A stretch of 64,000 bases of DNA from Clostridia bacterium (GCA_045633845.1 JAZQZC010000036.1:2004-66003), one strand, 5' to 3'. Shown: positions 1,511 to 63,538, counted from the stretch's first letter. Numbers and translations: made by a program. The notes: generated from the letters alone by a model not told the origin.

Positions 1511-1547
1511 AGGTTGGACAAACAATTTGTCCAACCTTATTTTTTTA
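1511..1547 (+). terminator. Intrinsic terminator of ispE
   Basis: AGGTTGGACA-aacaatt-TGTCCAACCT followed by TATTTTTTT. Confidence 0.8.
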
Positions 1548-1551
1548 ACGA

Positions 1552-1743
1552 GGTGACAGTGGGGGATGTTCGCATGACAACGGGGACATTCCTCGCAAGA
1601 GGTGACAGTGGGGGATGTTCCTTTGTAAAAGGTGCGTCCCCATCTGTCACCGATTAATTTATTGCCGTCTGTTTGCTTGGGCAACGAGGACACACCCCTT
1701 GCGAGGAATGTCCCCGTTGTCATGTGAACATCCCACTGTCACC
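1552..1743. repeat. Family-1 palindromic repeat, locus 1 (alpha half + beta hairpin + inverted full alpha)
   Basis: Starts GGTGACAGTGGGGGATG and ends CATCCCACTGTCACC. Positions 1602-1743 are the reverse complement of locus 2 (2408-2551). The modules are shared with loci 3-5. Confidence 0.9.
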
Positions 1744-1776: not shown

Positions 1777-2412
1777 ATGAAAAAAATAATTTCCGCACTT
1801 TGTATAGGCTTTTTGTTATGCTTTGTGCTGAATGTCCATATGGATACCACCGAGGCCGCTCTTGCAAAAGGCATAATCCGTCTGCACGTTGTTGCAAACA
1901 GCGACAGCGAGGCCGACCAGGCGCTTAAATTAAAGGTGCGTGACCGCATACTTTCGGAGTGCAGCGATGAGTTTTCTGCAGCAAACAATATAGATGCAGT
2001 GTCTGCTGATATAAGCACAAACCTCCTATATATCAAAAAACAAGCCGAGGATGAGATTGCCAAAAACGGATATGATTATACAGTGGATGTAAGCTATGGT
2101 ACCCAAAGCTTCCCGCGAAAAAGCTACGGCGACATAACCTTTCCCGAGGGGGATTACCAGGCACTTAAGGTAGTAATAGGTCAGGGCAGCGGCAAAAACT
2201 GGTGGTGCGTGTTATTTCCGCCGCTGTGCTTTGTAGACGAGGCTTGTGTAAGCGTAGATGCTCAATCTCAGCAATATCTCAAAAATCAGTTGGGGAGCGA
2301 AACATACAGTATGGTAACAGACGGAGTGGAATTTAAGCTCAAAAGCTATGAGCTGTGGCAAAGCGGCAAGGAGCTTGTAAGCAATGCTATGATGCAGCTG
2401 GGGTTGAGGTGA
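1777..2412 (+). CDS. spoIIR: Stage II sporulation protein R
   Basis: Hydrophobic N-terminal signal/anchor. SpoIIR signature blocks IRLHVVANSDSEADQALKLKVRD and GKNWWCVLFPPLCF. RBS AGGAGG lies upstream. The stop TGA lies inside the first GGTGACAG of repeat locus 2. Confidence 0.9.
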   Translation: MKKIISALCIGFLLCFVLNVHMDTTEAALAKGIIRLHVVANSDSEADQALKLKVRDRILSECSDEFSAANNIDAVSADISTNLLYIKKQAEDEIAKNGYDYTVDVSYGTQSFPRKSYGDITFPEGDYQALKVVIGQGSGKNWWCVLFPPLCFVDEACVSVDAQSQQYLKNQLGSETYSMVTDGVEFKLKSYELWQSGKELVSNAMMQLGLR

Positions 2413-2551
2413 CAGTGGGGATGCTTGCATGACAACGGGGACATTCCTCGCAAGAGGTGTGTCCTCGTTGCCCAAGCAAACAGACGGCGATAAATTAATC
2501 AGTGACAGATGGGGACGCACCTTTTACAAAGGAACATCCCCATCTGTCACC
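2408..2551. repeat. Family-1 palindromic repeat, locus 2 (alpha + beta)
   Basis: GGTGACAGTGGGGATGCTTGCATGACAACGGGGACATTCCTCGCAAGAGG...AGTGACAGATGGGGACGCACCTTTTACAAAGGAACATCCCCATCTGTCACC. About 92 percent identical to the inverted copy in locus 1. Confidence 0.9.
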
Positions 2552-2717
2552 CATCATCTGGCTAATGTTAAGAATTTTAAAAATTTCGGTCTTTACAACG
2601 TGATTTTATTAATATATAATCGTATTAACAAATTATTTGTGCTAGGTCACTGTTATGATATTTAATCAAAAACTCATTAAAATCTTACGCAGACGATAAA
2701 TAAAGGAGCACCCCAAA

Positions 2718-7927: not shown

Positions 7928-8848
7928 ATGGATAAAGAAATCAGCAAAAATAAAATTAAAATCAGTACAGGCGAAAAGATATTCAATGTATTTAACGTTT
8001 GCTTTATGATTGCAATGATATTTATTATGTTCTATCCTATGTGGCACGTTGTGTGTGCGTCTTTCTCAAACCCGAGATTGCTCGCAGCTCACGATGGTGT
8101 TCTCATTATACCAAAGGGATGGTCACTCATTGCATACGACCTTATGATGGAAAATCCTATGATTCTCAAAGGCTACGGAAATACATTCTTTATACTTTTC
8201 TTCGGTCTTTTGGTAAATATGGTTATGACTTGTCTTGCAGCATACGTTCTCTCAAGACGTAACGTAATGCTCAACAAGCCGATTACAATGATGATTGTAT
8301 TCACAATGTACTTCAACGGAGGTCTTATCCCTACATATCTCAACATTATGGAGCTTGGACTCCTCGATTCGCTCTGGTCACTTATCATTCCGGGCGCAAT
8401 CAGCACATACAATATGATAGTACTTCGTACAGGCTTTGCATCTGTACCCGAAAGTCTTGAAGAATCAGCAAAAATTGACGGTGCGTCTAGCCTTAGAATT
8501 TTGTGGCAGATTATCATTCCGCTTTCAAAAGCTACAATTGCAGTTATTGCTCTCTACTACGCAGTTAGTCACTGGAACTCATGGTTCGGCGCAATGCTCT
8601 ATTTGTCAGACCGTCAGAAGTTCCCACTCCAGCTTATCCTGCGTGAAATCCTCATCAGCAACGATACAACATCAATGGTTGGTGAAGGCAGTATGGCAGG
8701 ACAGGGCGGTGCAGGTGAAGCATCATTTGTTAGCGAAACTGTAAAATACGCAGTTATCATTGTATCAACTGTTCCGATTTTGTGTGTATATCCTTTCATT
8801 CAGAAATACTTTACAAAAGGCGTTATGGTTGGAGCTGTTAAAGGTTAA
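7928..8848 (+). CDS. Sugar ABC transporter permease (LplC-like)
   Basis: EAA loop EESAKIDGASSLRILWQIIIPL. ATG 7928 is preceded by GGAGGGG. Confidence 0.88.
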   Translation: MDKEISKNKIKISTGEKIFNVFNVCFMIAMIFIMFYPMWHVVCASFSNPRLLAAHDGVLIIPKGWSLIAYDLMMENPMILKGYGNTFFILFFGLLVNMVMTCLAAYVLSRRNVMLNKPITMMIVFTMYFNGGLIPTYLNIMELGLLDSLWSLIIPGAISTYNMIVLRTGFASVPESLEESAKIDGASSLRILWQIIIPLSKATIAVIALYYAVSHWNSWFGAMLYLSDRQKFPLQLILREILISNDTTSMVGEGSMAGQGGAGEASFVSETVKYAVIIVSTVPILCVYPFIQKYFTKGVMVGAVKG

Positions 8849-11175: not shown

Positions 11176-11216
11176 ATATTATCTTACATAAAATTTATAA
11201 AGGTTAAAGCTAATGA

Positions 11217-11457
11217 GCAAAATCGGTGCAAACAGAGTCTGCATATGATATGGTTTTTACAAGTTGTTTTTATATTTTGCCCGATTTGGTGGTAAAATGC
11301 CAAGAACAAAATAAGTTCCATAATTATCTTGGCATTTTAGCGCAACCACGACGAAAAAATTTCGGCGGCTTTGCGCGTGCCATTAAATCGGGTAAAATAT
11401 AAATTACAAATTGTTAAACCACTTATCATCCGCAGACGACGTTTGCACCGATTTTGC
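11217..11457. repeat. 241-bp rod-like palindromic element (family 3, single copy in window)
   Basis: 17-bp perfect termini GCAAAATCGGTGCAAAC / GTTTGCACCGATTTTGC. Nested inverted repeats include GTCTGC/GCAGAC, TATATTTTGCCCGATTT/AAATCGGGTAAAATATA and AAAATGCCAAG/CTTGGCATTTT. Confidence 0.85.
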
Positions 11458-11571
11458 AAATTTTACATCCACATTATTTTTAGTTTGTTCACAATTCACT
11501 AATGTTTTTTTAATGTTAAAATGATATACTTGTTAATATAATAAAGCATATTGTGTAAAAGGAGACCAACT

Positions 11572-13350
11572 ATGAAAATTTTAAAGCTTCTTGACGGAAA
11601 AGTAAATTTAAAATTAGGCAAAAAAAGTCTGGAAATCAGCAAAAAAATTCTGGCAATCATAATTGCGGCATTGCTTGTAGTTTTTGTGTTTACATATTCA
11701 TTTTTTACAGGCAGCGACAAAACATCCGCTGAGCTTGTTAACGCCCAGGTTACAAGAGGTGACATTGTAAGCTCTATTGAGGGTACAGGAGTAATTGAGG
11801 CAATTAATCAGTACGAGGTAACCTCTCTTGCAAAAGGTGATATAATTGCCGATTATTTTGAAGAAGGCGACTATGTAGAAAAGGACCAGCTCCTTTACGA
11901 GATGGACAGCTCTTCTGTAGCAAGCACTATTGAGAGGGCGCAGTCAAGTCTTGAAAAAGCGCAGATGAATTACGACCAGGCAACCGAAGATGTTGCCAAC
12001 CTTAATATAAAGGCAGACATTTCGGGTGTTATTACATCACTCAACATTAAAAAGGGCGACCAGGTAGGCAACAATACAGTTGTTGCTGAGATTATAGACA
12101 GAAGTACAATGCTGCTCCGTATTCCATTTAATGCAAACGATGCACAAAAGCTTTGGGTGGGGCAGAGTGCTACAGTAAACTTAGAGAGCTCATTTACTTC
12201 GGTAAACGGCAAGGTTTCAAGAATTGCAACAGGCTCAACCATCAACTCCTATGGTGTTGCAGTAACAAACGTTGAGCTTGAGGTACCTAACCCCGGCTCC
12301 ATTAAGCCAGGTGACAAGGCTACTGTTGTAGCAGGAGATTGTGCTTGCAACGACGCAGGTGAATTTGAATATAAAAATGAGTCTACAATCACCGCAAAGG
12401 TGTCGGGCAAGGTTACGGCTTTAAATTACCACGAGGGTGACAAAATTTCGCAAGGCGCAGTAATTGCGCGTCTGGAGAGTGACAGCGTAACATTAAGCGC
12501 ACGCTCAAACAGGCTTTCGCTCAATGATGCGGTAAGCTCACTCAAGGATGCGCAGGAAACTCTTGACGATTACAGAATAACGGCGCCTATTTCGGGCAAG
12601 GTTATAGAAAAAACTGCAAAAGCAGGCGAAAAGCTTGACACAAACTCATCCTCAACAATGGCAATCATTGCAGACCTTTCATCACTTATATTTGAAATGA
12701 GCATTGATGAGCTTGATATAAGCAAAATCAAAGTGGGTCAGGAGGTTCAGATAACTGCCGATGCAATAGAAAATACCACTTTTACAGGAACTGTAACAAG
12801 TGTAAGCATAGTAGGAACTTCGACTCAGGGTGTTACAAGCTATCCTGTAAAGGTTACTATACAAGACGGCGAGGACAGCGGACTTATACCGGGAATGAAC
12901 GTAACCGGTAATATTATAGTTGAATCGGTAGAGGACGTACTCCGCGTACCTGTTTCGGCAGTAAGAAGAGGCAACTTTGTTATAGTTAAGGATGACGGAA
13001 CAGTTGACCAAGCAAATTACGATGACGGAACAGTTGACGAAGCAAATTACGATGACGGAGCAAAGCTTGACGATGCAGACAAACAGGCAGCACGCCTTGA
13101 AAATATGAAAAAACAGCTTGACATACCTGACGGATATACAGTTGTTCAGGTAGAAACAGGCTTAAGTAATAATACATTTATCGAAATTAAGAGCGGACTT
13201 TCCGAGGGGCAGACAGTTTTACTTCCCGATACCACCGAATCAGCCGCAGCAACTCAGCAAGGTATGATGGGCGGTATGAGAGGAATGCCCGGTGGAATGG
13301 GCGGTATGCCTTCAGGCGGAGGAATGCCCAGTGGCGGTATGCGCCAATAA
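11572..13350 (+). CDS. HlyD/MacA-type efflux adaptor (membrane-fusion protein)
   Basis: N-terminal TM segment, coiled-coil and lipoyl/beta-barrel blocks (ITAPISGKVIEK), directly upstream of MacB-type ATPase and FtsX permease genes. ATG 11572 follows AAGGAG. The C-terminus carries a Gly-Met-rich tail. Confidence 0.85.
   Translation: MKILKLLDGKVNLKLGKKSLEISKKILAIIIAALLVVFVFTYSFFTGSDKTSAELVNAQVTRGDIVSSIEGTGVIEAINQYEVTSLAKGDIIADYFEEGDYVEKDQLLYEMDSSSVASTIERAQSSLEKAQMNYDQATEDVANLNIKADISGVITSLNIKKGDQVGNNTVVAEIIDRSTMLLRIPFNANDAQKLWVGQSATVNLESSFTSVNGKVSRIATGSTINSYGVAVTNVELEVPNPGSIKPGDKATVVAGDCACNDAGEFEYKNESTITAKVSGKVTALNYHEGDKISQGAVIARLESDSVTLSARSNRLSLNDAVSSLKDAQETLDDYRITAPISGKVIEKTAKAGEKLDTNSSSTMAIIADLSSLIFEMSIDELDISKIKVGQEVQITADAIENTTFTGTVTSVSIVGTSTQGVTSYPVKVTIQDGEDSGLIPGMNVTGNIIVESVEDVLRVPVSAVRRGNFVIVKDDGTVDQANYDDGTVDEANYDDGAKLDDADKQAARLENMKKQLDIPDGYTVVQVETGLSNNTFIEIKSGLSEGQTVLLPDTTESAAATQQGMMGGMRGMPGGMGGMPSGGGMPSGGMRQ
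12991..13059 (+). repeat. In-frame 30-bp tandem duplication inside the adaptor gene
   Basis: GATGACGGAACAGTTGACCAAGCAAATTAC is repeated at 13021 with one mismatch, plus 9 nt of a third unit. It encodes DDGTVDQANY DDGTVDEANY DDG. Confidence 0.9.
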
Positions 13351-13378: not shown

Positions 13379-14065
13379 ATGATAGAATTAAAAAACATAT
13401 ACAAAATTTACTCAGACGGCGACAGCGAAATAAGAGCACTTGACGGCGTATCACTGCATGTGTCACAAGGTGAATTTGTATGTATTGTAGGCTCTTCGGG
13501 TTCGGGTAAATCCACCTGTATGAACATCATAGGCTGCCTTGACATCCCCACAACAGGTGAATATTGGCTTAATGGCACCGATGTCAGCACAATGGGCGAA
13601 AAGGAGCTTGCTCACATACGCAATCGCGAGCTTGGATTTATTTTTCAGCAATACAATCTCATTCCAAAGCTCACTGTGCTTGAAAATGTGGAGCTTCCAC
13701 TTTTGTACAAGGGCTTAAAGCCCGCCGAAAGAACGGAAATGGCAAAAAAAGCTCTCCAAAGAGTAGGACTTGCCGACAGAGCCAAAAAATATCCGTCACA
13801 GCTTTCGGGAGGTCAGCAGCAGAGAGTGTCTATTGCACGTGCTCTTGCAGGCAACCCGCCTGTTATACTTGCCGACGAACCCACAGGTGCACTTGATTCA
13901 AAAACAGGTAGAGAAGTGCTTGAATTTTTAAAGCAGCTAAACCGCGAGGGCACAACAATAGTACTTATCACTCATGACAACTCAATAGCTGACCAAATAA
14001 AGCGCGTAGTGCGAATTCACGACGGAAAAATAGTTGCCGATGAGGTAAAGGAGGATGCACAATGA
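13379..14065 (+). CDS. ABC transporter ATP-binding protein, MacB/LolD type
   Basis: Walker A GSSGSGKST, signature LSGGQQQRV, Walker B ILADEPTGALD. Confidence 0.92.
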   Translation: MIELKNIYKIYSDGDSEIRALDGVSLHVSQGEFVCIVGSSGSGKSTCMNIIGCLDIPTTGEYWLNGTDVSTMGEKELAHIRNRELGFIFQQYNLIPKLTVLENVELPLLYKGLKPAERTEMAKKALQRVGLADRAKKYPSQLSGGQQQRVSIARALAGNPPVILADEPTGALDSKTGREVLEFLKQLNREGTTIVLITHDNSIADQIKRVVRIHDGKIVADEVKEDAQ

Positions 14066-20065: not shown

Positions 20066-20104
20066 TGAAAAATATAAAGAGCGGACTTATAAAAAATCCG
20101 CTCT
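20066..20104 (-). terminator. Intrinsic terminator after rny
   Basis: On the minus strand: AGAGCGGA-ttttttataag-TCCGCTCT followed by TTATATTTTT. Confidence 0.6.
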
Positions 20105-20117
20105 CAAATTATGTTAA

Positions 20118-21662
20118 TTATTTTGCGTAATCTACTGAACGAGTTTCTCTGATAACGTTAACTTTTATCTGTCCCGGATACTCAAGTTCACTTTCTATTT
20201 TTTTAACTATATCTCTTGCAAGGAGTATGGTATCCTCTTCTTTAACGCTTTCGGGCTTAACCATAATTCTGATTTCTCTGCCCGCCTGAATTGCGTAGGA
20301 TTTTTCTACTCCGCTAAATGAATTTGCAATTTCTTCAAGTCTTTCAAGTCGTTTGATGTATGTTTCCAGGTTTTCACGTCTTGCACCCGGTCTTGCAGCG
20401 CTTATTGCGTCACAGGCCTGTACAATGCAGGCAATAACAGTGTTTGCCTCAACATCACCGTGGTGAGCGGCAATTGCGTGAATAACCTCTTGTGATTCGT
20501 GATATTTTTTAGCAATATCTACACCAATGTCAACGTGTGAGCCTTCAATTTCGTGGTCGATAGATTTACCGATATCGTGAAGTAAGCCCGCTCTTTTTGC
20601 TGTTTTGATATCAACGCCAAGCTCTGCAGCCATAATACCTGCAAGGTGTGCAACCTCGGTAGAATGCTTTAATACATTTTGACCATAGCTTGTACGATAT
20701 TTCATACGGCCAAGAAGCTTTATAAGCTCAGGGTGCAGACCATGTACACCTGTTTCAAATGTAGCCTGTTCACCCTCCTGCTTGATAATTGCATCAAGCT
20801 CCTTGCGTGATTTTTCAACAGTTTCTTCAATTCTTGCCGGATGAATACGTCCGTCAACAATGAGCTTTTCAAGTGCCATTCGTGCAATTTCTCTTTTTAC
20901 AGGGTCAAAGCACGAAAGAATAACTGCTTCGGGGGTATCGTCTATAATAAGGTCAATACCTGTAAGAGTTTCGAGTGCTCTTATATTTCTGCCTTCGCGG
21001 CCGATAATTCGGCCCTTCATTTCGTCGTTGGGGAGAGCCACAACAGAAACGGTAGTTTCTGCAACATGGTCAGCCGCACATTTTTGAATTGCAAGACTGA
21101 TAATGTTTTTTGCTCTCTTCTCAGCCTCGTCTTTAGCCTGAGATTCAATATCTTTAATCATTATTGCTGCTTCGTGACGAACTTCTGTTTCAATATTTTT
21201 GAGCAAATACTGTTTTGCGTCCTCAACAGACAAACCTGATATTTTTTCCAACATTTCAAGCTGAGCATTTTTAATCTTGTCAGTTTCGGCCTTGAGAGCT
21301 TCGGCTTCTTTGATTTTTTGATTAAGCAGCTCGTCTTTTTTTTCAAGAGCTTCGGACTTTTTGTCCAATGCTTCTTCTTTTTGCTGAATACGACTTTCCT
21401 GTCTATTCATTTCCTTGCGTCGTTCTTTAGATTCTTTTTCAAATTCATTTCTGCTTTTATGAATTTCATCCTTTGCCTCGAGCAAAGCTTCTTTCTTCTT
21501 TGTTTCGGCTTCTTTTACGGCCTGATCAACAATAGCTTTTGCTTTTTGTTCAGCACCGCCGATTTTAGCCTCGGCAATTTTCTTTCTGTACATGCTGCCT
21601 GCAAAAAAGGCAACAACACAGCAAACTGCCGCAGCTGCAATTGTAATTATTAATTCTGTCAA
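20118..21662 (-). CDS. rny: Ribonuclease Y
   Basis: N-terminal TM segment, long Lys/Glu coiled coil, KH domain ([15 protein letters not shown]), HD domain (HDIGK...HHGD). TTG start follows AAAGGAGG. Confidence 0.95.
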
Positions 21663-26914: not shown

Positions 26915-26950
26915 TTTAATTCCTCGCTTATTTTTTTCTGAAGGTTTCCA

Positions 26951-27228
26951 TAGTGTGACAGGATTCGAACTCTCAATGCCTGACATCTGAAATTTTTGAA
27001 ATCTTTCAGTTTGTCGGTTTTGACGGGCGTCAGCCCGCCTGCAACCTGTCGCACTGAAATCTCAACAAAAATTTCAAGATGGCAGGTGCAAAGCAGTTTC
27101 ACATAGAAAAATTCTTCTGAAACAAGGTAAATTACGAAGGGAATACTTGCGTATTTTCAAGGAATTTACCGATGTTTTAGGTGAATTTTTTATGTGAAAC
27201 CAATGTTGGTTCGAGTCCTGTCACACTA
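26951..27228. mobile_element. Family-2 MITE-like element, copy A (274 bp plus flanking TA/TA)
   Basis: Termini GTGTGACAGGATTCGAAC / GTTCGAGTCCTGTCACAC with TA on both sides. 260/276 identical to the inverted copy at 48823-49098. Overlaps the last 16 codons of rho. Confidence 0.85.
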
Positions 27229-31156: not shown

Positions 31157-31169
31157 ATAATAAGCTAAA

Positions 31170-31205
31170 ACAGCATTCTCATTAAATTGAGGATGCTGTT
31201 TTTTT
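31170..31205 (+). terminator. Intrinsic terminator of rnc
   Basis: ACAGCATTCTCA-ttaaat-TGAGGATGCTGT followed by TTTTTTT. Repeat locus 3 starts 3 nt later. Confidence 0.75.
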
Positions 31206-31207
31206 GT

Positions 31208-31480
31208 GGTGACAGAGTGATAAGAGGGGTGACAGTGGGGAAGTTCCTTTGCAAAAGGTGCGTCCCCATCTGTCACAGGTTAGTGTTTGCCATATGTTCG
31301 CACAACAAGCGAGGACACACCTCTTACGAGGAATGTCCCCGTTGTCATGCGAACATCCCCATTTGTCACAGTTTAGTGTTTGCCATATGTTCGCACAACA
31401 AGCGAGGACACACCTCTTACGAGGAATGTCCCCGTTGTCATGCGAACATCCCCATTTGTCAAAACATCCCCGTTTGTCAC
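31208..31480. repeat. Family-1 palindromic repeat, locus 3 (beta hairpin + two tandem 93-bp inverted alpha units + terminal motif)
   Basis: GGTGACAGTGGGGAAGTTCCTTTGCAAAAGGTGCGTCCCCATCTGTCAC, then 31277-31369 and 31370-31462 almost identical. Confidence 0.9.
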
Positions 31481-31583
31481 TTGCTCTTTTGTGTAAAATT
31501 GTTAAAAAGTGCGTTTGCGTTTGTGACTTTTTAACAAAAATGCAAAAAAAGCGAAAAATCACAAAAAAATTTTGCATTAGCTA

Positions 31584-45495: not shown

Positions 45496-45538
45496 TTTTT
45501 TCGGGACGTCCAGGAGGCCGTCCCCTACATATATTGCA

Positions 45539-45717
45539 GGTGACAGGGGGATGTTCGCATGACAACGGGGACATTCCTCGCAAGAGGTGCATAGGTGACA
45601 GTGGGGAAGTTCCTTTGCAAAAGGTGCGTCCCCATCTGTCACCGATTAATTTTTTGCCATTTGTTCGCACAACAAACGGGGACGCACCTTCTGCGAAGGA
45701 ACTTCCCCCACTGTCCC
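45539..45717. repeat. Family-1 palindromic repeat, locus 4 (alpha half + beta hairpin + linker + beta variant)
   Basis: GGTGACAGGGGGATGTTCGCATGACAACGGGGACATTCCTCGCAAGAGG...GGTGACAGTGGGGAAGTTCCTTTGCAAAAGGTGCGTCCCCATCTGTCACC...ACGGGGACGCACCTTCTGCGAAGGAACTTCCCCCACTGTC. It ends at the gatD stop codon. Confidence 0.9.
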
Positions 45718-48821: not shown

Positions 48822-49099
48822 CAGTGTGACAGGACTCGAACCAACATTGGTTTCACATGAATAATTTACCTGAAACTTCAGTAAATTCCTTGAAAATACG
48901 CAAGTATTCCCTTCGAAATTTACCTTGTTTCAGAAAAATTATTCTATGTGAAACTGCTTTGCACCTGCCATCTTGAAATTTTTGTTAAGATTTCAGTGCG
49001 ACAGGTTGCAGGCGGGCTGACGCCCGTCAAAACCGACAATCTGAAAGATTACAAAAATTTCAGATGTCAGGCAGTGATAGTTCGAGTCCTGACACACTA
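48822..49099. mobile_element. Family-2 MITE-like element, copy B (inverted relative to copy A)
   Basis: GTGTGACAGGACTCGAACC...AGTTCGAGTCCTGACACAC, flanked by CA on the left and TA on the right. 94 percent identical to the reverse complement of copy A. Lies 19 nt upstream of the EIIC-like start codon. Confidence 0.85.
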
Positions 49100-49209
49100 T
49101 ATTAATATTATTCTATACCAAATTTAAAAAAAGTTCAACAGTTTAAAGTGTATTTTATGCATAATTCGTCATTTGGTATATATTTATATAATTGAAAGGA
49201 GTTTTTTTG

Positions 49210-50776: not shown

Positions 50777-51050
50777 GTGACAGTTGGGGATGTTCGCATG
50801 ACAACGGGGACATTGCTCGCAAGAGGTGTGTCCTCGCTTGTTGTGCGAACAGATAAAAACTAACCAGCGACAGACGGGGACGCACCTTTTGCAAAGGAAT
50901 ATCCCCATTTGTCACTTTTGCACAAAAGAGCTCGGTGGGGGATATTCGTCCGCAGGACGTGTGTCCCCGCATCCGGGCGACCGCAAGTGACAGTAGACAG
51001 ACGGGGACGCACCTTTTGCAAAGGAACATCCCCGTCTGTCTACTGTCACC
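50777..51050. repeat. Family-1 palindromic repeat, locus 5 (alpha + beta + degenerate beta + extended beta)
   Basis: GTGACAGTTGGGGATGTTCGCATGACAACGGGGACATTGCTCGCAAGAGG... ending with a perfect 21-bp stem GTGACAGTAGACAGACGGGGA / TCCCCGTCTGTCTACTGTCAC. Confidence 0.9.
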
Positions 51051-51079: not shown

Positions 51080-51108
51080 TTGACAAACCAAATTTCGGGT
51101 GATATAAT
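51080..51108 (+). promoter_or_regulatory. Sigma-A promoter of the infC-rpmI-rplT operon
   Basis: TTGACA (51080-51085), a 17-nt spacer with an extended TG, and TATAAT (51103-51108). Confidence 0.7.
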
Positions 51109-51111
51109 ACT

Positions 51112-51220
51112 CAAGGAAAGTAAAGCAGAAGTCCACTTCTCACCTGCGGATTTGGTATGTCCGTATGGTTAATACATTTGTTTTATGTGTATAAGTGGGT
51201 GGATTTCGCCCACTTTTTTT
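51112..51220 (+). promoter_or_regulatory. Ribosomal protein L20 leader (attenuator) of the IF3 operon
   Basis: About 110-nt structured leader between the promoter and infC, ending in the terminator AAGTGGG-tggatttcg-CCCACTT plus TTTTTT (51193-51220). This arrangement is typical of the Firmicute L20 leader. Confidence 0.6.
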
Positions 51221-51244
51221 AATTTATTTTGGAGGTGCTTTATC

Positions 51245-63281: not shown

Positions 63282-63287
63282 CTTTTT

Positions 63288-63538
63288 TGTAGGCGTTGAA
63301 GATGTGTAAGTAGCAAAAGAATTTTCTTCAAAGAGAGAGCATATCGTCGGCTGTGAGTATGCTTGTTGAAACCTTTTGTGAATTTCAGCATTGGAGCCTT
63401 CTGCGAAAAGTATTTTGCGTTAAGCAGACATTACCGTAATGGCAAAAATCGGACTAAAAGAGCGAAATTTATATTTCGAAATAGGGTGGTACCGCGAGCA
63501 ATCTCGTCCCTTACATATGGGCGATGATTGCTTTTTTG
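63288..63538 (+). promoter_or_regulatory. T-box riboswitch, Phe specifier (UUC)
   Basis: AGAGAG bay, distal-loop GCTGTGA, a specifier-loop candidate GAATTTCA (UUC followed by A), the T-box sequence AATAGGGTGGTACCGCG (63480-63496), and the terminator GAGCAATCTCGTCCC...GGGCGATGATTGC plus TTTTTT. Confidence 0.85.

Follow-up and report, generated by a model that had tools for sequence, protein, structure and literature searches.

What are the long palindromes that lie between genes in a spore-forming member of the Clostridia known from metagenome assemblies alone, and how did they come to be there? The window that we analysed, 64 kb of one strand of a genome with a guanine plus cytosine (GC) content of about 42%, carries one of them at 1552-1743, between the gene of an ispE-like kinase and spoIIR. 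An earlier note on this DNA had counted that palindrome among five intergenic loci, assembled from the modules of a repeat family that its author did not recognise. We conclude that the five loci are probably copies of a non-autonomous, non-coding mobile repeat of the REP/BIME/REPIN, BOX or MITE (miniature inverted-repeat transposable element) kind, and that they form an apparently undescribed family, new in its sequence, known in its kind and outside every named family. Three lines of evidence carry this reading: the distribution of a short core motif, the comparison of filled and empty sites in relatives, and the way in which copies diverge from one another.

A core motif confined to five loci

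Exact copies of the strict core, GACARNNGGGGAY, number 15 in the window, where 0.01 would be expected, and none of 100 shuffles comes near that figure. A relaxed form, GACAR-N(0-4)-GGGRA, has 26-27 matches, all within the five loci and none elsewhere, against 0.2-0.8 in shuffles that preserve dinucleotide composition. The figure of about 29 cores first obtained by eye was slightly high, though essentially right, and the remark that none sits inside a gene holds for every relaxed match. All five loci described at the outset are there. Together they make up about 1.1 kb, and each is lodged between genes: locus 1 (1552-1743) separates the ispE-like kinase gene from spoIIR; locus 2 (2408-2551, forward strand) separates spoIIR from the gene of a HIGH-nucleotidyltransferase; locus 3 (31208-31480, reverse strand) lies between rnc and mraZ; locus 4 (45539-45717) fills the gap of a convergent pair, dus and a CobQ-like amidotransferase gene; and locus 5 (50777-51050, forward strand) is found between a DUF4397 gene and infC. 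The termini, (G)GTGACAG...CTGTCAC(C), are base-paired with each other. The uniform beginnings that had been claimed are as described as far as the (G)GTGACAG ends go, save that locus 3 opens with a degenerate head, GGTGACAGAGTGATAAGAGGG, ahead of its first full core; the degenerate terminus ascribed to locus 4 is indeed present, as CTGTCCC.

For comparison we used contigs from other assemblies and from relatives, labelled L001-L060. The independent assemblies L001, L002 and L057 are identical to the window, bar one indel, at loci 1 and 2 and over the right end of locus 5, and because these loci recur in independent assemblies they are not assembly artefacts. Contigs L057, L059, L060 and L002 terminate within repeat loci, and breaks of this sort suggest that the family is multi-copy enough to disrupt short-read assembly.

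Filled and empty sites around spoIIR

Relatives were ranked by a search for SpoIIR homologues and their contigs compared at the orthologous gaps. The gene order ispE-spoIIR-(HIGH-nucleotidyltransferase) is kept across the relatives compared. Among the contigs compared, only the window and L049, whose SpoIIR is 87% identical, have repeats in the gaps on either side of spoIIR; these gaps are short and free of repeats in L050 (80% SpoIIR identity), L051-L053 (86%) and L054-L056 (72%). The presence/absence polymorphism that the earlier note had proposed to look for is found at both of these sites. Nor are the loci fixed in position across relatives, the outcome that it had set against its own reading, the spoIIR-flanking sites being empty in three related lineages.

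The junctions tell what the repeats have done to the gene between them. In the empty genomes the ispE terminator runs straight into the spoIIR ribosome-binding site, and the SpoIIR frame extends several codons further. In the window, the first bases of locus 2 give spoIIR its TGA stop (2410-2412) and displace the ancestral C-terminal codons: set side by side, window 2390-2412 and L050 10640-10680 yield an ancestral ending ...MMYLSTKY* and a window ending ...MMQLGLR*, with the stop drawn from the GTGACAG of the repeat. On the 5' side of spoIIR, the repeat has come between the start codon and its old ribosome-binding site, and directly after the repeat there is a new AGGAGG. Such consequences for the host, the new C-terminus and stop of SpoIIR, the displaced ribosome-binding site and the very stable hairpins that any read-through RNA would contain, look incidental.

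Differences extend to orientation. The unit that follows spoIIR points forward in the window, but in L049 it is reversed, with the left junction unchanged. As the heads of the hairpin named alpha and of the inverted hairpin named beta (both described below) have about 20 nt in common (GTGACAGNNGGGGATGTTC), a flip between inverted ends is the simplest account of this reversal. L049 has, besides, an extra unit beyond the next gene, at a site that is vacant in the window, and a solitary beta hairpin of 48 nt (13501-13550), outside the synteny with the window, in the loop of a terminator-like stem. A unit flipped in situ between inverted heads might point to arrays of binding or recombination sites, in which the core would be bound by a nucleoid protein, a regulator or a recombinase, and inversion would be programmed after the fashion of shufflons or invertons. 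The presence of several cores per locus, direct as well as inverted, tandem iterations of the head such as GTGACAGTAGACAGAC and CCCCATTTGTCAAAACATCCCCGTTTGTCAC, differences of orientation between strains at rnc/mraZ, and conservation of the head across contigs of 40-62% GC all fit such a scheme. Against it, a recombinase gene is found near none of the loci examined, the flipped segments hold neither promoter nor coding sequence that could be switched, and a host binding site would not vanish from orthologous sites and close relatives, so that we regard programmed arrays as highly improbable. Invertible promoters were rejected for want of a promoter in the flipped segment.

No clean target-site duplication is present at the two filled/empty comparisons. 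Locus 2 is flanked by ATGATG / ATCATC, a doubtful, degenerate 6-nt duplication, and a third filled/empty comparison, after the HIGH-nucleotidyltransferase gene, is confounded by rearrangement. A glycoside-hydrolase-2 gene that the window, L050 and L051 lack stands between spoIIR and the HIGH-nucleotidyltransferase gene in L049 (4763-6916) and L054 (1951-4104); with its presence varying in this way, the neighbourhood has been rearranged beyond the repeats. We also observe that spoIIR is bracketed by inverted 134-nt copies, 94% complementary (1601-1734 and 2418-2551). Homologous recombination between them could invert the whole of spoIIR; the inverted form was not seen in L001 or L002.

Divergence, dispersal and turnover of copies

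Coding DNA of the window is 77-81% identical to that of SGB_1127, a metagenome-assembled genome (MAG). An alpha copy at a non-orthologous site of this MAG is 98% identical to two alphas of the window, whereas orthologous alphas of the window and L049 are 84% identical. This pattern is the signature of repeated re-copying from a conserved master, with inserted copies decaying at about the neutral rate; a functional RNA tied to its locus should display the reverse. That the family is dispersed, as had been supposed, is borne out by copies on contigs of related genomes outside the window: L003 and L011, both of the SGB_1127 MAG, L049 at 8105-8248 and 13501-13550, and a translated copy, P0002. This last is one of two database curiosities. 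A spurious open reading frame (ORF) of 131 amino acids (31182-31577, reverse strand), made wholly of repeat sequence, is recorded as NCBI protein P0001, and P0002, of 141 amino acids, is a second repeat-derived ORF on another 35-kb contig; a protein-database search with the ORF spanning locus 3 returned itself and P0002 only. A scan of GTDB genomes with an 18-mer of alpha gave 38 loci, two of which are real (in one Clostridia MAG), the others being chance matches that lack the core, and a 22-mer of alpha had no match in JGI metagenomes. As far as these scans reach, the alpha module appears confined to a narrow clade, namely one GTDB species and one other translated copy.

As a case in point of rapid change within a locus, the gap between rnc and mraZ is occupied in four assemblies (flanks at least 99.6% identical, or the same MraZ protein) and its content is different in each, and the differences lie no further than one k-mer or read length from unique flank. 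In the window, two inverted alphas come after an inverted beta; L060 has a single inverted unit with another alpha subtype; L059 has a forward beta at its end; and in L058 an inverted alpha tail comes after a forward unit.

Hairpins, units and composites

All the loci are built from hairpins in which the core GTGACAG-N(1-3)-GGGGA, paired to TCCCC-N(1-3)-CTGTCAC, makes the outer stem; this stem encloses an internal loop, mismatched and conserved, and, further in, a short stem-loop. The beta hairpin, of 48 nt, is correctly given by the earlier note as GTGACAGatGGGGA-cgca-CCTTT-tgc-AAAGG-aaca-TCCCCatCTGTCAC. Its alpha module exists as well, in the form of a long hairpin of about 75 nt and not as a linear module of about 95 nt: GGGGAT-GTTCGCA-tga-CAAC-GGGGAC-att-CCTC-GCAA-GAGG-tgt-GTCCTC-gctt-GTTG-TGCGAAC, where GCAA is a tetraloop of the GNRA type and the inner part follows the plan of beta. 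A third type of hairpin, at locus 5, shares the architecture of beta and alpha, with GTCC/GGAC as its inner stem instead. The inner 40 nt of alpha are invariant, mismatches included, and conservation peaks there, not at the termini; we take it that recognition by an enzyme constrains this stretch, and see in it no argument for an RNA function.

The loci had been presented as mosaics of two modules combined in either orientation. Both orientations do occur, but two ordered arrangements recur in place of free mosaics. Class I is a unit of about 140 nt, alpha-linker-beta (2408-2551, 50777-50915 and 31229-31369 in the window, L011 and L049 8105-8248 elsewhere). Class II is a composite of about 195 nt, a 52-nt alpha head joined to an inverted class I unit and hence to an inverted beta, a linker and an inverted alpha; it is found at 1552-1743, in degenerate form at 45539-45717, at site 1 of L049 and, in the opposite orientation, in L058. 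The inverted ends measure 14-20 nt in class I and 42-52 nt, 95% complementary, in class II, and the folds predicted for each locus range from -74 to -152 kcal/mol.

Locus 1, of class II, is made of an alpha head (1552-1604, forward), an inverted beta (1602-1650), a linker (1651-1669) and an inverted full alpha (1670-1743); head and inverted alpha pair through the 42-52-nt arms typical of this class, and the predicted fold reaches -134 kcal/mol. Locus 2 is a forward class I unit, with alpha at 2408-2483, linker at 2484-2501 and beta at 2502-2550. At locus 3 a degenerate head (31208-31228) and an inverted beta (31229-31276) are followed by two tandem copies of inverted linker and alpha (31277-31369 and 31370-31461), repeated with a period of 93 nt and 98% identical, and by the remnant of half a core (31462-31480). 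Locus 4, a decayed class II composite, has its alpha head at 45539-45589, inverted beta at 45595-45642, linker at 45643-45661 and inverted alpha at 45662-45717, this last with an internal deletion between two TCCCC words. Locus 5 begins with a class I unit (50777-50915; alpha 50777-50852, beta 50867-50915) and continues with the hairpin of the third type at about 50934-50974, GGGGA-tattc-GTCC-gca-GGAC-gtgtg-TCCCC, and a distal beta hairpin with a doubled head (50987-51049).

Much of this anatomy could be the work of replication itself, and one may ask whether the family spreads passively, by slippage, template switching and gene conversion among copies, with no dedicated enzyme. The inverted duplications of class II, the TCCCC deletion of locus 4, the 93-nt tandem of locus 3 and the iterated heads are all typical hairpin-driven replication errors. 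What passive spread leaves unexplained is how new copies came to previously empty, unrelated sites, and why copies are 98% identical between species whose genes are about 79% identical. Of the accounts weighed here we give it the least credence.

Repeats between transcription units

The repeats sit where transcription units meet. The intrinsic terminator of the ispE-like gene (1511-1547, forward strand) lies a few bases ahead of locus 1, and the terminator of rnc (31167-31209, forward strand) has a T-run that abuts locus 3. Just downstream of locus 2 there is a promoter-like site for the next gene, TTTACA-17-TATAAT (2592-2620, forward strand), whose sequence is conserved in the relatives with an empty site; as it follows the repeat, locus 2 lies between two transcription units. 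Just downstream of locus 5, the infC operon has a consensus promoter of the sigma-70 type, TTGACA-17-TATAAT, with 12 of 12 positions matched (51080-51108, forward strand). Loci 1 and 3 thus begin just past intrinsic terminators, and loci 2 and 5 finish ahead of downstream promoters. Three regions were scanned for signals of the repeats' own (locus 1 with the flank of locus 2, locus 3, and locus 5). Within them the only terminators are those of the upstream genes, with none inside the repeats, and the repeats have no strong promoter or T-tail of their own. The lack of T-tails in the regions scanned led us to reject intrinsic terminators as their identity.

Would the host, then, have selected these loci as structured RNA, be it as stabilisers of mRNA 3' ends, terminators, RNase III sites or small RNA genes? 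The extreme stability of the predicted folds, the GCAA tetraloop of alpha together with conserved G-U positions, and the placement of five loci out of five downstream of a gene, in one case right after rnc, the gene of RNase III, would all suit such roles. Yet in close relatives the corresponding sites stand empty, copies at orthologous positions have diverged faster than those at unrelated ones, and the repeats are found in both orientations with respect to transcription. Furthermore, the strand that folds better differs between modules, the forward one being more stable in 8 of 8 copies of alpha and the reverse one in 10 of 10 copies of beta; owing to G-U wobbles the two modules favour opposite strands, and no single transcript is favoured. 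Loci 1 and 3, being placed behind strong terminators, are probably poorly transcribed, and the loci scanned have no T-tail. In Rfam 15 no family reaches its gathering score, while the E-value mode brings up models of eukaryotic microRNA hairpins, at 23-49 bits for cut-offs of 64-130, and there is almost no covariation. A role as host-selected RNA is accordingly very unlikely in our view.

A probable mobile repeat and its presumed enzyme

The reading that we favour remains that of a mobile, non-coding repeat. As the comparison with relatives indicates, new copies are gained at intergenic sites, for the most part in the dispensable DNA that separates the close of one transcription unit from the next promoter, and occasionally in the last codons of a gene. 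Once inserted, a copy drifts at about the neutral rate, and occupied loci are repeatedly flipped, duplicated, truncated and overwritten. The simplest source of such reshuffling would be the many inverted cores, between which recombination or a switch of template during replication may take place. Spread would need an enzyme encoded elsewhere in the genome and recognising the conserved core and the interior of the hairpin. No transposase, integrase or recombinase domain was found among the 50 proteins of the window, in keeping with the earlier statement that it holds no transposase. Our preferred guess for the enzyme, a tentative one, is an HUH/Y1 transposase that would act on the folded single strand, as the REP-associated tyrosine transposases (RAYTs) do on REPs. 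We prefer it because there is no clean target duplication, because the interior is better conserved than the termini, and because single hairpins occur alone.

The next option is a DDE transposase acting on the inverted ends. The loci would then be classical MITEs, whose ends are bound by the transposase of an insertion sequence (IS) located elsewhere and which move as double-stranded DNA. To be sure, the terminal inverted repeats are clear, ending in 5'-TG...CA-3', the size of the elements (140-195 nt) is right, the 6-nt sequences around locus 2 may be a degenerate duplication, and the window holds a second, MITE-like element of 278 nt which makes an active IS repertoire plausible. We nevertheless deem both the enzyme and the classical mode of movement unlikely. 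A clean duplication is missing from either filled/empty site as well as from the surroundings of eight perfect hairpins of metagenomes; it is the interior and not the ends that is most conserved; hairpins are found singly; and no IS with these ends turned up in plasmids, phages or viral contigs (host genomes lay outside this search), nor does the window contain any IS.

Several observations weigh against the reading that we favour. A mobilising enzyme is lacking in the window, and also beside every copy in the loci fetched from relatives. The repeats have no 5' GTAG/GTGG tag such as REPs have. Genomes with the alpha module are few, which leaves the abundance first ascribed to the family unproven, and the orientation of units with respect to flanking genes, 3 forward and 6 reverse among all copies seen, shows no bias pointing to a replication-strand preference. 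Covariation, seen in 2 of 25 alpha pairs, is too sparse to establish that the fold itself is under selection. Since the short contigs L059 and L060 break off in the repeat, part of the strain variation at rnc/mraZ may be an effect of assembly. Finally, empty and filled sites differ beyond the element, by about 20-30 nt with a new ribosome-binding site at site 1; the comparisons fit deletion also, and no transposition event is directly documented.

Relation to known systems

The likeness to BIME and REP sequences noticed at the outset is supported in kind, the repeats being dispersed, modular, palindromic and intergenic. As in the REP/BIME/REPIN systems (PMC3116915, PMC3733652), they are short, imperfect intergenic palindromes, mostly downstream of genes, which occur singly, in clustered mosaics, and as inverted doublets whose folds make larger hairpins; across related species the master sequence is kept while sites turn over, and a transposase is absent from beside most copies. 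Each hairpin is an inverted pair of cores and class II an inverted pair of alphas, and in so small a sample either might be the form that replicates. In contrast to the two REP superfamilies (PMC3733652), there is no CGTC tag, no stem of 8-9 bp and no CCA tail, and the head is GTGACAG-N(1-3)-GGGGA. Where REPs are palindromes of 20-40 nt, the hairpins of the window are longer, at 48 and about 75 nt, and their internal loop is conserved. The host also sets them apart from REPIN-RAYT systems, as it belongs to an uncultured Clostridia lineage, and no RAYT was found in the window or in the fetched loci. The text of the 2013 survey of tagged REPs never mentions Firmicutes (PMC3733652).

Among Firmicutes, the BOX elements of Streptococcus (PMC3049150) are the obvious comparison. 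They too are modular, composite, non-coding repeats, with modules of about 50 nt in varying number, a strong predicted structure and an intergenic location; they sometimes alter the ends of genes and create spurious ORFs, and no mobilising enzyme is known for them (PMC3049150). We saw no resemblance to BOX, which is set apart here by its published description (PMC3049150) and not by sequence alignment: the order boxA-boxB(n)-boxC is fixed, whereas the modules of the window are variants of a single hairpin architecture and occur in both orientations. BOX elements, moreover, appear dormant (PMC3049150), while loci of the present family differ between near-identical strains. With the Correia, RUP and ERIC MITEs (general features in PMC3049150 and PMC3184786) the family has in common a length of 100-200 nt, terminal inverted repeats, a hairpin formed by the whole element and insertion polymorphism. 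It departs from them in the lack of a consistent target-site duplication, in having yielded no parent IS whose ends match, and in an interior better conserved than the termini.

Other identities were tried and set aside. The ends GTGACAG/CTGTCAC are not the R''/R' of integron attC sites (RYYYAAC ... GTTRRRY), there is no integrase, and the flanking core genes stand in conserved order. Irregular spacing and copies in both orientations dismiss a CRISPR array. A guide-RNA scaffold of TnpB/IscB is discounted, with no such gene nearby and no Rfam match, and the match to the consensus of SpoIIID or Spo0A boxes is poor. The family went unrecognised in the earlier note, and our own search agrees, finding no Rfam match and no description in the literature under keywords or under the head sequence of a generic hairpin treated in the next section; these queries did not extend to the alpha and beta sequences of the window itself.

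A wider group of hairpins

A generic pattern of hairpin head and tail retrieved eight further metagenome contigs (L041-L048), with GC contents of 40-62%. All their heads extend to GTGACAG-NN-GGGGACGG(T)nC, with a TT spacer in 6 of 8. The hairpins measure 56-68 nt, come several to a contig with the 9-nt head iterated in tandem, and always lie between ordinary genes. They share with the window family a head of 13-14 nt, inverted pairing, iteration of the head, intergenic location and patchy occurrence; they differ from it in the interior of the stem, GGTnC...TTTTGTCA instead of CGCACCTTTT..., and in having no alpha module. Their hosts are deep-branching, uncultured, Bacillota-like organisms: a peptidase encoded next to the generic hairpins has its best named relatives, at about 40% identity, in Peptococcaceae and Oscillospiraceae. 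A contig related at 82% is devoid of these hairpins. BLAST searches with the unit and the generic hairpin against plasmids and phages gave no match, and beta, generic hairpin and generic head were each without match in viral contigs.

The window family thus looks like one branch of a broader, patchy hairpin group, a link made through some 20 shared bases. One might go further and see in it a branch of a large, undescribed, REPIN-like superfamily of uncultured Bacillota, with the head GTGACAG-NN-GGGGAC(G), propagated and perhaps inverted by a vertically inherited enzyme that has so far gone unrecognised. Such an enzyme, be it a site-specific recombinase or a domesticated HUH transposase, would read both the core and the mismatched internal loop. 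We consider such a superfamily distinctly unlikely. Were it real, the differences at rnc/mraZ among near-identical strains would represent ongoing, enzyme-driven shuffling and not slow decay. Beside locus 4, at 45503-45527 (forward strand), a small hairpin, GGGACG-tccaggagg-CCGTCCCC, contains the sole GGGGACGG word of the window; a single occurrence is no more than chance would give, being matched in 17 of 100 shuffles. The hairpin might be left over from the wider GGGGACGG group, or it could simply be the terminator of dus.

Other elements of the window

A separate, MITE-like element is present in two inverted copies of 278 nt, 94% identical, one in the gap between ftsK and rho (26950-27227) and the other between an EIIC gene and a gene of unknown function (48823-49100). 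Its ends, of about 20 nt, TAGTGTGACAGGAyTCGAAC and GTTCGAGTCCTGTCACACTA, resemble the T-arm and acceptor end of a tRNA, although ARAGORN predicts no tRNA at either copy, and TA is found at three of the four ends. The earlier note had connected the termini of this element, its second family, with the main one. They do share GTGACAGG with it and nothing else, and the element looks like a MITE in its own right; a transposase common to both families was rejected for the same reason, GTGACAGG being all that is shared and TA flanking three of four ends of the 278-nt element.

A third repeat is an inverted pair of 67 nt, 70% complementary (11212-11278 and 11396-11462), between an SDR gene and a HlyD-like gene; it is 77-80% similar to L003 4141-4503, the DNA that adjoins the alpha copy of the SGB_1127 MAG. 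The HlyD-like gene itself contains an in-frame tandem duplication of 30 nt (12991-13050, 97% identical). As for known RNA families, a match to the L20 leader at 51117-51227, upstream of infC-rpmI-rplT, scores 57.6 bits where the Rfam cut-off is 58.7 (E = 9e-9) and is probably a genuine L20 leader; a second, weak match to the same model lies at 20067-20170 on the reverse strand (E = 0.13). A T-box leader near the end of the window (63287-63514) is above the Rfam gathering score, at 102.9 bits.

What the family may teach

The kind of element described here is familiar, and no new mechanism is demonstrated. REP and REPIN repeats and their domesticated transposases have, to our knowledge, been studied almost entirely in Proteobacteria, and a well-defined family of hairpins in gut or rumen Clostridia would extend this biology to a new phylum. 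The family has in its favour a clear insertion polymorphism and a master sequence better conserved than the surrounding genes, and its 13-nt core is a concrete handle for locating the enzyme. There are practical consequences too: repeats of this sort break metagenome assemblies, spawn spurious ORFs that enter databases as proteins, as the 131-amino-acid example illustrates, rewrite the ends of genes, and provide markers at the level of strains.

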